DNA of 19,272 nt from a virus (Duplodnaviria; Heunggongvirae; Uroviricota; Caudoviricetes). Positions 1 through 3,000 of the stretch are shown piece after piece. Made by a program: the position numbers. Numbering within the stretch: position 1 is the first letter of the stretch; every line of letters begins with the position of its first letter. The stretch lies in the IMG/VR virus record IMGVR_UViG_2541047431_000016. One strand, given 5' to 3'.

Positions 1-3000
1 GATATTGATACTGGCAGCTATCCAGTACAGCGCCGAGCCAAGATAGCGGGCTGCGGTTTCAACCTGCCTGATATCCGCAATCCGCTTTTCCGAGAACCAG
101 AACTCAAACTGTACCGTCGGGTCATAAACGGCAAGATGCGGCGTGGCGGTTATCTGAAAATAGCCCGGCGTCAGCTCAATCCGCGACGGTGCTGCCGGTG
201 CGGCAATCCGGAAGGTGGTGGTGGCAGGTTCACCCTGCTGGCCATAGCTGTTAATCGCCCGCACCGTCAGGGTGTATTCCCCGAGCGGCAGGCCGCTGAA
301 ACGGTGCTCCGTGTCTGCGGTGATGGCGGTGGTCACCAGTCTGGCATCCGTTCCCTTACCACTGGTCAGGCGCAGACTGAAGCGCACGCCCTTCACCACC
401 CGCGGCGTGTCCCATTTAGCCTGCGCCAGATACTGGCCGTCAGCTGCACTCACCTCCACCGTCAGGTGCTGTACTGCCGGTGGGATGACGCTGTTCAGGG
501 AACCTGACTGCGGCTCAAAGCGGGCACCGTTATCCACCGCCGTGATGGCAAAGGTGCCGTCCGTGTTTTCCCGGACGGAGACACAGCGGAACAGGCGACG
601 GCGCAGTGACGGCAGGGAGAGTCCCCACACCCCGTATGTCTCCACACCATCAGGCAGGGTACTGACCTGTATCCGGTCCGGCGCGGGGTGTGCGGTGATG
701 TCCACACTCACCGGCTTACCGCTGCCGTTAATCAGGTTCACCGTGGCGGCACCGGTCTCCGGCAGTGTCACAATGGCATACAGCGCCCACTTGTCCACAT
801 CCGCCGCCCCCAGGCGTTTTCCCATTCCGTAGCGCGGGTGGGTCAGCATGTCCCACAGGCACCAGGCAGGGTTGTTGCTGTATGCCGGTTTCAGGCTGCC
901 GTCCCAGATGCCGCTGTACGTGCGTTTTTCCGGGTCATAGTTTGACGGCACCTGGATGATGCGACCGCGGATATGGTAGTTCACCGTCATCTGCTGACCG
1001 CCAAACTGCTCCGCATCCACCTGCAGCCCCACAATGGCCGTGTTCGGGTAGCACTGTTTCACATCGATGATTTCGGTGTATGACGACCACAGCGTTCTGT
1101 TCTGCAGCTGGTCCGTGGTGCTGTCCGCCGTCTCCCTGACCATCCGGATGTTAAAGGGCCGGGGCGGCAGATTATCCAGAATCACCGACGCCAGGAACTG
1201 CGAGGTGGTCTTGCCGTTAATGGTGACATCCTTTTCCGTCACCCAGTTACCGTTACGCTGCAGCTGAATCAGCAGTCGGACGGATGCCGGGTTACGGTCA
1301 CCCTGTGAGGTGGTCTGCACCAGTGACTGCACCCCGAAGGTGACCCGCAGGCGGTCAATGTTCGCGGACGTAATGGTGCGCGTCACCGGCTTTGCCTTCG
1401 TCACTTCCACGCCCAGTGCGGTTTCAGCTCCGGAGGACTCAAAGCCTTCCGGTGGTGTCTGCTCCTGCTCCCCGGCACGCCAGACCGCGGTCACACCGTG
1501 TATCACGGGATTGCCGTCCGTGTCCGTCAGTGGGGTTTTGTTCACCAGAATACTCTGCAGTCCCTTCACCGGACCTTCTATCGGTCCCTCACCAATCGCA
1601 TCAATCACACTCATCATCTGCGTGGATTTGAGATTATCCTTCGCCTCACGAGGCGTGTGTGCCTTACCGCCACCTTTTCCCATACAGCCTTCCCCTGAAT
1701 AAATTAACCGCCACTTGCCATTCCGTACAGAAGTCGGATATCCTTCGCCCGAAAAGCATGAAACACATTTCTGCCATGCTAAAGAGAAACCCCGGTATCA
1801 GCAGATACCGGGGTTTTCTTTCATGCCCACCGATAATCCTGTTGGTTAAAACCGGTAATGGCATAAAAATTCTGAATATCTTCACATTTTCACACACTGA
1901 CTGTGGCGCTTATAATTTCGCTGCGTTAGTGTTTTTTTGCCCGAGTAACAAAAACAACTCCTTAACATTGATCTTCATTTGTCTGTCCCCGCAGCTCCGC
2001 GATCACTGCGGGATTTTTTTATGTTTTATCCCTGTCGCCCGACAACCACGACCGTTCCGCCCCCACCTTCATCACGGGTGCTGATGTCCTGGGATATACG
2101 GCGGGAGCCAACCAGCATTTCCCCGTAAGGCACCGGCATCGGGTTCCCCTGGGCAATCATGTTATCCAGCGAGGAAAAGTACGTGTTCTGTCTGCCGTTA
2201 TCCGTTGCGCGGTAATCCGGTGTTTTTGCCTTCGGGGCCAGCATCTGGGCCACACCGCCCAGAATCATGCTGGCTCCAAGTGAAAACAGCATCGTGGTGG
2301 CAGAAAAACCACCGGCTGCCAGGGCTGAACCCCATAACGCCATTGATGCCCCGGCAGTGAAGAAAGAGCCCACGATGGCTGCCGCCCCCAGCACAATCTG
2401 CAGTCCACCCTTTCCGGCCCCGGCCAGTCGCGGCACAATATGGATGACCGTTCCCTCACCCAGCTGTTCGTGAAGACGGGCGTACACCGCCTCCGGTGCC
2501 GTGTCATAACCGGCAATACGTATCTGGTACCAGCCTTCGTTCATCTGACGGCGAAAGCCCGGCACCTGTAACGACAGCGCCCGGATGGCTTCCGCTGCCG
2601 TGTTCACATACAGGCTGAGGCGGCGGCCAAATCGTTGTAAATCCCCGTGAAGGCAGATACGTGCCAGTGGCGGTGACGCCAGGCTGAATGCGTTCGTCGT
2701 TGCCATTTTTCGGAATACCTCTCCCGTTTACTCAGTTGTTCAGGCAGATGGTGAAGCAGTTCACCGTTGCCGCAGTATATGGCGGCATGATTGGCCACCG
2801 ATGCGCCAAAGCAGCACAGCAGGATATCGCCAGGCTGTGCGGAAGGCAGGGAAATCCTGTAAAAACCAGTCGCCTCCATATTGTCCAGGTACAGGTTCTG
2901 ACCATTGCGCCACCAGTCATCCTCACGCTCAAAATCCGGCATATCAGTCCCCGCCAGATGATAAGCATCCCGGAACAGCGTGTAACAGTCCGTCACCCCG

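Follow-up and report, generated by a model that had tools for sequence, protein, structure and literature searches.

The DNA analysed here is a 19,272-bp stretch of a lambda-like prophage (IMG/VR record IMGVR_UViG_2541047431_000016), hereafter called the window, whose genes were assigned from open reading frame (ORF) calls and Pfam profile matches. Its late operon lies on the minus strand, with L and K upstream of I and J. The spacer between the tail genes I and J (1684..2025, 342 bp) contains, on the opposite strand, a gene for a predicted small RNA (sRNA), which we identify as a new allele of EcOnc22/23/24, Hfq-bound RNAs of Escherichia coli O157:H7 Sakai. The genes and features of this part of the window are the following.

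1..1683, minus strand: 5' part of gene J, for the tip attachment or host specificity protein (Pfam FNIII-A_GpJ, Ig_J and Ig_J_second), with its ATG at 1683..1681 and continuing past the left end of the window.
1684..1789, minus strand: leader of J in the "long" form of the left module, which includes the ribosome-binding site of J (GGGGAAGG) and, at 1756..1779, a small hairpin (sequence and fold).
1790..1813, both strands: T1, a two-way hairpin resembling an intrinsic terminator, with a 10-bp stem and a 4-nt loop, folding at -23.4 kcal/mol on the plus strand and -23.8 kcal/mol on the minus strand.
1860..1888, plus strand: block upstream of the promoter, nearly invariant among alleles, including a CRP-like TCTGA-N6-TCACA at 1871..1886.
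1889..1916, plus strand: sigma-70 promoter of the sRNA, with -35 TTCACA, a 16-nt spacer and -10 TATAAT, matching the consensus at 11 of 12 positions (consensus scan).
1923..2020, plus strand: predicted sRNA of ~96-98 nt, EcOnc22/23/24 allele (homology and synteny with Sakai prophages Sp11, Sp14 and Sp15, published probe, reads from crosslinking, ligation and sequencing of hybrids (CLASH), folds).
1988..2020, plus strand: T2, intrinsic terminator of the sRNA, with the stem CCCGCAG / CTGCGGG (1988..1994 / 2006..2012), an 11-nt loop, an A and T7 at 2014..2020 (consensus scan).
2026..2706, minus strand: gene I, tail assembly protein I (Pfam Lambda_tail_I and ORF), with its stop codon at 2026..2028.

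An earlier note on this DNA had described a 342-bp insert between I and J, holding a plus-strand promoter (TTCACA/TATAAT) and, by the I stop, a plus-strand hairpin terminator at 1988..2012. The length follows directly from the ORF and Pfam coordinates. The promoter was recovered by the consensus scan and is the only site on either strand of the window with at least 11 of 12 sigma-70 matches, dinucleotide shuffles giving 0.1. Scan and fold also returned the terminator, which folds at -12.6 kcal/mol and begins 72 nt 3' of the promoter; its T run stops 5 nt short of the I stop codon, and the hairpin read on the minus strand has no T run behind it. The statement that in lambda J lies within a few bp of I proved incorrect, the actual lambda gap being 60 bp and containing a hairpin of its own, followed by TTTTGTCATTT.

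The right half of the spacer belongs to a family of sequences for which expression data have been published. Positions 1860..2025 of the window align with the I-J spacer of VT1-Sakai (Sp15) with 74.1% identity over 166 bp (E = 3e-20), promoter and terminator included, and nhmmer and blastn searches yielded an unbroken series of alleles from 74% to 100% identity. A homologous block is present in each of the I-J spacers of Sakai Sp15, Sp14 and Sp11, these three spacers being identical and 237 bp long. In the same three prophages, and on the strand opposite to I and J, Hfq crosslinking and analysis of cDNA (CRAC) had revealed the peaks EcOnc22, EcOnc23 and EcOnc24 (Tree et al. 2014, PMC4104026 Table S2), with a Northern band of ~85 nt that is destabilised in an hfq deletion (Table S2) and with crosslinking to Hfq (Table S2, Figure 4A). 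Order and orientation are shared with the window: J and I of Sakai are minus-strand genes, as they are here, and the CRAC peaks map to the opposite, plus strand.

The published "EcOnc22/23/24" Northern probe and the RNase E-CLASH reads could be placed precisely. The first 23 nt of the probe are the exact complement of the plus strand at 2175..2197 of locus L001, 1206..1228 of L002 and 1256..1278 of L003, in each case directly before the terminator stem, and the reads for EcOnc22/23 correspond to the sequence of L001 2152..2184. The coordinates of Tree et al. refer to an older Sakai record and are ~128-142 bp below those of NC_002695.2 (134 by the CLASH read). This offset was calibrated in three ways, using AsxR (stated to lie 282 bp after stx2B), StxS (terminator downstream of PR') and the CLASH read, for which the old position 2902717 reads GCCTGAAAAATAACTCC... 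and equals L001 2152, i.e. an offset of +134. With offsets of +128 to +142, the EcOnc22/23/24 peaks land on the RNA body between promoter and terminator.

The window module thus shares with the EcOnc22/23/24 family its sequence, its position and strand in the I-J slot, and a promoter and terminator of its own that bound an RNA of ~85-100 nt. Homology, synteny and the placement of probe and CLASH reads together indicate that the ~100-nt plus-strand transcript antisense to the late operon, as proposed in the earlier note, is the RNA known from the sister allele of Sakai, where it was detected at ~85 nt. The feature of the window is therefore a new allele of a family that is known experimentally but functionally uncharacterised, and that is found neither in Rfam nor in genome annotation. 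At gathering thresholds the spacer had no match in Rfam, and permissive thresholds gave weak terminator look-alikes, the best with 27 bits against a cut-off of 48; RefSeq almost never carries any annotation at the module.

The two alleles occupy the same slot on the same strand and have homologous upstream blocks, -10 boxes and terminator stems, with ~85 nt measured in Sakai and 96-98 nt predicted here. They differ in the 5' domain, which includes a 6-nt indel, and in the central segment, where 3 of 20 positions are changed (CUCCUUAACAUUGAUCUUCA in the window, CUCCAUAACGUUAAUCUUCA in Sakai). The -35 box of the window (TTCACA) is better than that of Sakai (TTCCGG), and the J-proximal module of the window is of a long form with the two-way terminator.

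The predicted sRNA is composed of a variable 5' domain, a central stretch with a conserved (A/G)AUCUU(C/U), the terminator hairpin and a U7 tail. The A-U-C-U-U of the central motif is invariant, and the stretch that contains it is mostly unpaired in the predicted ensembles of most alleles and is part of the segment recovered in CLASH hybrids. To describe the variation, 81 I-J spacers were delimited from 80 IMG/VR loci found by a search with the I protein (96-100% identity) and two contigs from a genome scan, the three Sakai spacers being counted apart. They comprise 29 distinct sequences, one of them that of the window, with lengths of 234-344 bp and a single one of 851 bp. The complete module is present in 80 of the 81; the 851-bp spacer, at locus L095, retains the RNA body and terminator alone. 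Conservation by column was determined on 24 unique alleles, in window coordinates.

1860..1888, upstream block: 24 of 29 columns invariant.
1889..1910, -35 box and spacer: 4 of 22 columns invariant.
1911..1916, -10 box: 3 of 6 columns invariant, mean majority frequency 0.94.
1931..1958, RNA 5' domain: 8 of 28 columns invariant.
1979..1987, segment before the terminator: 0 of 9 columns invariant.
1988..1994 / 2006..2012, both arms of the terminator stem: 14 of 14 columns invariant.
1995..2005, terminator loop: 0 of 11 columns invariant, the length varying too.
2013..2020, tail: 7 of 8 columns invariant.

Divergence is therefore concentrated in the promoter spacer and the RNA body; the terminator stem, the tail and the upstream block stay fixed, as does most of the -10 box. 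The -10 box occurs as TATAAT, AATAAT, GATAAT, GATAAA and TATCAT. In the flanking I and J DNA the median identity is 98%; for the module it is less than 90% at 36 of 78 loci. Left modules and RNA alleles are combined differently from locus to locus, which points to recombination between the RNA module and the J-proximal module.

The nearly invariant block upstream of the promoter includes the CRP-like palindrome TCTGA-ATATCT-TCACA, with 9 of 10 core positions matched; three such sites occur in the window, 0.43 being expected. Both half-sites are invariant among the 24 alleles and the central N6 is variable. The centre of the site, at 1878.5, is ~-44.5 from the start of the RNA, itself a predicted position, compared with the canonical -41.5 of class II sites and -61.5 and further upstream of class I sites, and at this non-canonical distance the site is a lead only. 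Judged from its sequence, the block with its CRP-like site may be functional.

Among 5426 complete E. coli genomes, 1813 (33%) carry the module; the copies total 5544, with a median of 2 and a maximum of 11 per carrier. Hundreds of E. coli chromosomes, and also PPompW-type prophages, have the whole 342-bp spacer at 100% identity; strains that carry the window allele include O145:H28 RM9872 and O157:H7 PA20. The right half of the spacer (1860..2025, promoter, RNA and terminator) occurs at 74-99% identity in many Shiga toxin (Stx) 1 and Stx2 phages, including VT1-Sakai (Sp15). The module is absent from the 60-bp I-J gap of lambda (L100, 15445..15504), and was not matched in the distant I-J junctions of Enterobacter, Rahnella and Pantoea prophages, where gaps of 42-54 bp consist of a late-sense hairpin and T7 before the J start. 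Outside E. coli, the genome scan with the I protein returned only E. albertii, contamination-like contigs and distant I genes (~40% identity) whose junctions have no module. To the question whether the insert is sporadic, for which the earlier note had proposed an alignment of I-J junctions, the answer is therefore divided: it is missing from lambda and from the distant junctions, yet occurs in every related junction examined (81, that of L095 in part).

The insert had also been called moron-like. The module does resemble the lambdoid morons (Juhala et al. 2000, as cited in PMC4104026), of which the prophage sodC is an example: it is additional DNA that brings a promoter and a terminator of its own, it separates two genes of an otherwise conserved late operon, and at the same junction lambda and distant relatives lack it. 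It differs in that its cargo is an RNA rather than a protein.

Other cargo was observed in the same slot. The 851-bp spacer of L095 (SFGJ01000116.1) carries, on the sRNA strand and with its own terminator, a Cu,Zn superoxide dismutase gene, sodC (Pfam Sod_Cu, E = 3.9e-32), behind which the EcOnc22-family RNA body and terminator follow without promoter or upstream block. Distant lambdoid prophages of Pseudocitrobacter faecalis (L089) and Enterobacter wuhouensis (L091) have a 530-630-bp I-J insert with a lipoprotein-like ORF in late-operon sense, which has a signal peptide with a Cys lipobox and no Pfam match; these inserts suggest that the I-J junction is a general insertion point for morons. 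L095 and two further short contigs (L086 and L088) are filed under the titles Streptomyces flavalbus, Parendozoicomonas haliclonae and a Clostridiales metagenome-assembled genome; their I proteins are 89-97% identical to that of this prophage, the sRNA module was matched in all three, and they are most likely E. coli DNA contaminating those assemblies.

The J-proximal part of the spacer exists in two unrelated forms, a long one of 176 nt, present in the window with the two-way hairpin, and a short one of 75-90 nt. The long left module is 99.4-100% identical in 58 related loci. Its hairpin T1, which the note had described as bidirectional, was borne out by the folds on both strands and by the T-rich runs that flank it, TTTTCTTTC behind it on the plus strand and TTTCTCTTT on the minus strand, although it is not in the list of the consensus terminator scan, probably because the flanking A and T runs extend the stem and consume the T run. 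The short form has the hairpin CAGGCACCC-N4-GGGTGCCTG, followed by TTGTTTTT on the late-operon strand and showing one compensatory change from C:G to T:A. The position of T1 is taken, in the short module as well as in lambda and distant relatives, by a late-sense hairpin with a T run. In lambda and in L090, L092-L094, L096 and L097 this hairpin and its T-rich run lie in a short I-J gap and end right before the J start, one such junction reading GGTGCTTCGGCACC-T7-ATG. It seems that lambdoid tail operons conserve a terminator-like element ahead of J, a feature that has received little discussion.

It is plausible that T1 makes J dependent on Q antitermination, as had been suggested. As an element separate from the sRNA gene, T1 would most likely insulate J from transcription not modified by Q, a role that the hairpin at the same place in lambda and its relatives would share, and it would also shield the sRNA promoter from plus-strand transcription leaving J. 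In L011 (IMGVR_UViG_2671180417_000014), with an I-J spacer of 295 bp, T1 has been lost together with its flanks in a clean 47-bp deletion, the long module being otherwise intact; this natural variant offers a way to ask what the hairpin does. At the other end of the window, the ALIL pseudoknot of Rfam, which serves transposases of the IS3 family as frameshift signal, was matched over its full length at 19104..19220 on the plus strand (121.5 bits, E = 1.4e-31), which indicates an IS3-family element at the right end, beyond the lysis genes.

Taken together, we consider it likely, with a probability of about 0.7, that positions 1860..2020 form an independent plus-strand sRNA gene, a non-coding moron in the I-J spacer, and that this diverged EcOnc22/23/24 allele acts in trans via Hfq. 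By homology with the Sakai allele, for which this was demonstrated, the RNA of the window would be made in lysogens, bound and stabilised by Hfq, and ~85-100 nt long. Transcription would start ~7 nt after TATAAT, near 1923, as predicted from the -10 box, and would end in the U run at 2014..2020. Hfq would hold the RNA by its U tail and terminator hairpin, and base-pairing in trans with other RNAs would be the task of the stretch that runs from the 5' end to the terminator. It is this stretch that was recovered in CLASH hybrids and that varies from allele to allele, and on this reading different alleles would have different targets.

Several points weigh against this explanation. The CLASH hybrids have 1-2 reads each and are unvalidated; they involve the yjbJ coding region (-21 kcal/mol) and ECs5349. 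A 2021 review gives the targets of EcOnc22/23/24 as unknown, no member has a validated target, and our literature search found no paper on these RNAs later than that review. The expression data come from the Sakai allele, the start site of the window allele being predicted from its -10 box. The fold of the whole RNA is not unusual (z = -1.27), and no conserved 5' structure was found among the alleles, RNAalifold retaining the terminator alone, with covariation nowhere. Finally, the RNA is perfectly complementary to the late transcript, from the I stop to the hairpin before J, which leaves room for a role in cis.

Such a cis antisense regulator, in which the RNA or the converging polymerase would act on the I-J spacer of the late transcript, is the alternative to be taken most seriously, although we regard it as unlikely. 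RNase III cleavage of the duplex or transcriptional interference would then tune or uncouple J after induction, or suppress leaky J expression in lysogens, and the strong promoter directed against the late operon, together with the constant position and orientation at the I-J junction in all 81 related spacers, would be in keeping with it. The RNA, however, overlaps neither the J ribosome-binding site, ~240 nt away, nor the I coding region, which begins 5 nt past the RNA end. Perfect antisense pairs usually do not need Hfq, whereas the homologue binds Hfq and depends on it. In addition, the alleles recombine independently of the J-proximal module, and sodC replaces the promoter in L095, so the slot tolerates unrelated cargo. 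The OOP RNA of lambda is also short, made from its own promoter to an intrinsic terminator and directed against a phage operon; it acts in cis by way of RNase III and overlaps cII at the 3' end, unlike the RNA of the window, which overlaps no coding region and whose homologue is Hfq-dependent. The sodC gene of L095, on the same strand and followed by the RNA body and the same terminator, speaks for another explanation, in which an older moron (sodC with its promoter and terminator, for instance) would have left behind an inert block, still transcribed and without function. This seems improbable to us, because promoter elements, upstream block and terminator are intact across 24 alleles diverged by up to 26%, because a third of E. 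coli genomes have the module, often in many copies, and because the homologue accumulates and binds Hfq.

Small proteins are the least credible alternative. Two ORFs exist, one of 22 codons on the minus strand (MKINVKELF..., from 1979 down to 1911) and one of 141 codons on the plus strand (1659..2084), and in the first nine codons of the former 3 of 4 base changes between the window and Sp15 are synonymous. The start codon of this mini-ORF is nevertheless lost in other alleles, being ACG in the second commonest (20 loci) and ACG or ACA in others, its stop position shifts, and the alleles differ by indels of 1 and 2 nt, which argues against coding on either strand. The longer ORF crosses both terminators and overlaps I and J, and RefSeq has no annotation here in almost all genomes. 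The small ORFs of both strands were rejected because of start-codon loss and frame-breaking indels, in agreement with the view of the earlier note that the transcript holds no credible ORF. It also appears very improbable that the RNA titrates a core sRNA as a sponge (anti-sRNA), in the manner of AgvB and AsxR (EcOnc01/02), with GcvB as candidate partner through the C/A-rich AACAAAAACAAC at 1947..1958. Like the RNA of the window, AgvB and AsxR are short, prophage-encoded and Hfq-bound, they combine a variable 5' domain with a conserved 3' end, and they are morons with their own promoter and terminator; the C/A-rich motif, present in the window allele, first suggested that it was AgvB itself. 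That identity was rejected, as AgvB sits downstream of PR' and not between I and J, and as the test for GcvB pairing was negative: the RNA body pairs with GcvB R1 at -18.9 kcal/mol, shuffles giving -16.4 with a standard deviation of 3.3 and 21% of them being as good, while the positive control AgvB reaches -23.7 kcal/mol, a value equalled by 1.9% of shuffles. The motif is missing from other alleles, and in the predicted fold it pairs with the U run. AgvB and AsxR furthermore form convergent pairs and have a conserved 3' region of ~42 nt; when their published oligonucleotides were read against the RNA of the window, no similarity to this 3' region was seen, and the RNA was not placed in that group.

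HnrS (EcOnc10/11/12) is a multicopy Hfq-bound sRNA of 66 nt in the late region of lambdoid prophages of enterohaemorrhagic and enteropathogenic E. coli (bioRxiv 10.1101/2025.11.27.690950). Its seed has AAUCUUC, a sequence also found in the central segment of most EcOnc22-family alleles, GAUCUUC being the form in the window allele. HnrS lies between the lysis and terminase genes, and no homologue of it was found in the window. A targeting of hha like that by HnrS was considered and rejected, since by direct reading only CUUC of the RNA of the window is complementary to the hha ribosome-binding site, compared with at least 9 nt for HnrS; a full-length duplexfold of the RNA against the hha leader was uninformative, as it gave huge loops and ignores intramolecular structure.

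What the present analysis adds to the published data on EcOnc22/23/24 is that a variable body sits on a fixed chassis, that the module is of high prevalence and copy number, that its slot is shared with sodC, and that a CRP-like site is present. A more far-reaching possibility, which we put forward tentatively and hold to be doubtful, is that the I-J slot serves as a platform on which the seeds of sRNAs are exchangeable, so that each prophage brings a differently targeted Hfq-dependent regulator. The upstream block with the CRP-like site, the -10 box, the terminator stem and the U tail would then be the fixed chassis, on which the 5' and central domains would be rapidly exchanged. If this were true, host gene expression would be rewired combinatorially, and perhaps under catabolite control, in strains whose multiple prophages hold as many as 11 copies and several alleles.

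With a third of the complete genomes carrying it, often in several copies, this sRNA family is among the commonest unannotated genes of E. coli prophages, and the I-J gap of such prophages deserves the label of an sRNA gene instead of a blank or a hypothetical protein. The family is also tractable by experiment, as it offers many alleles on a fixed chassis in a constant I-J slot that is able to carry sodC as well.

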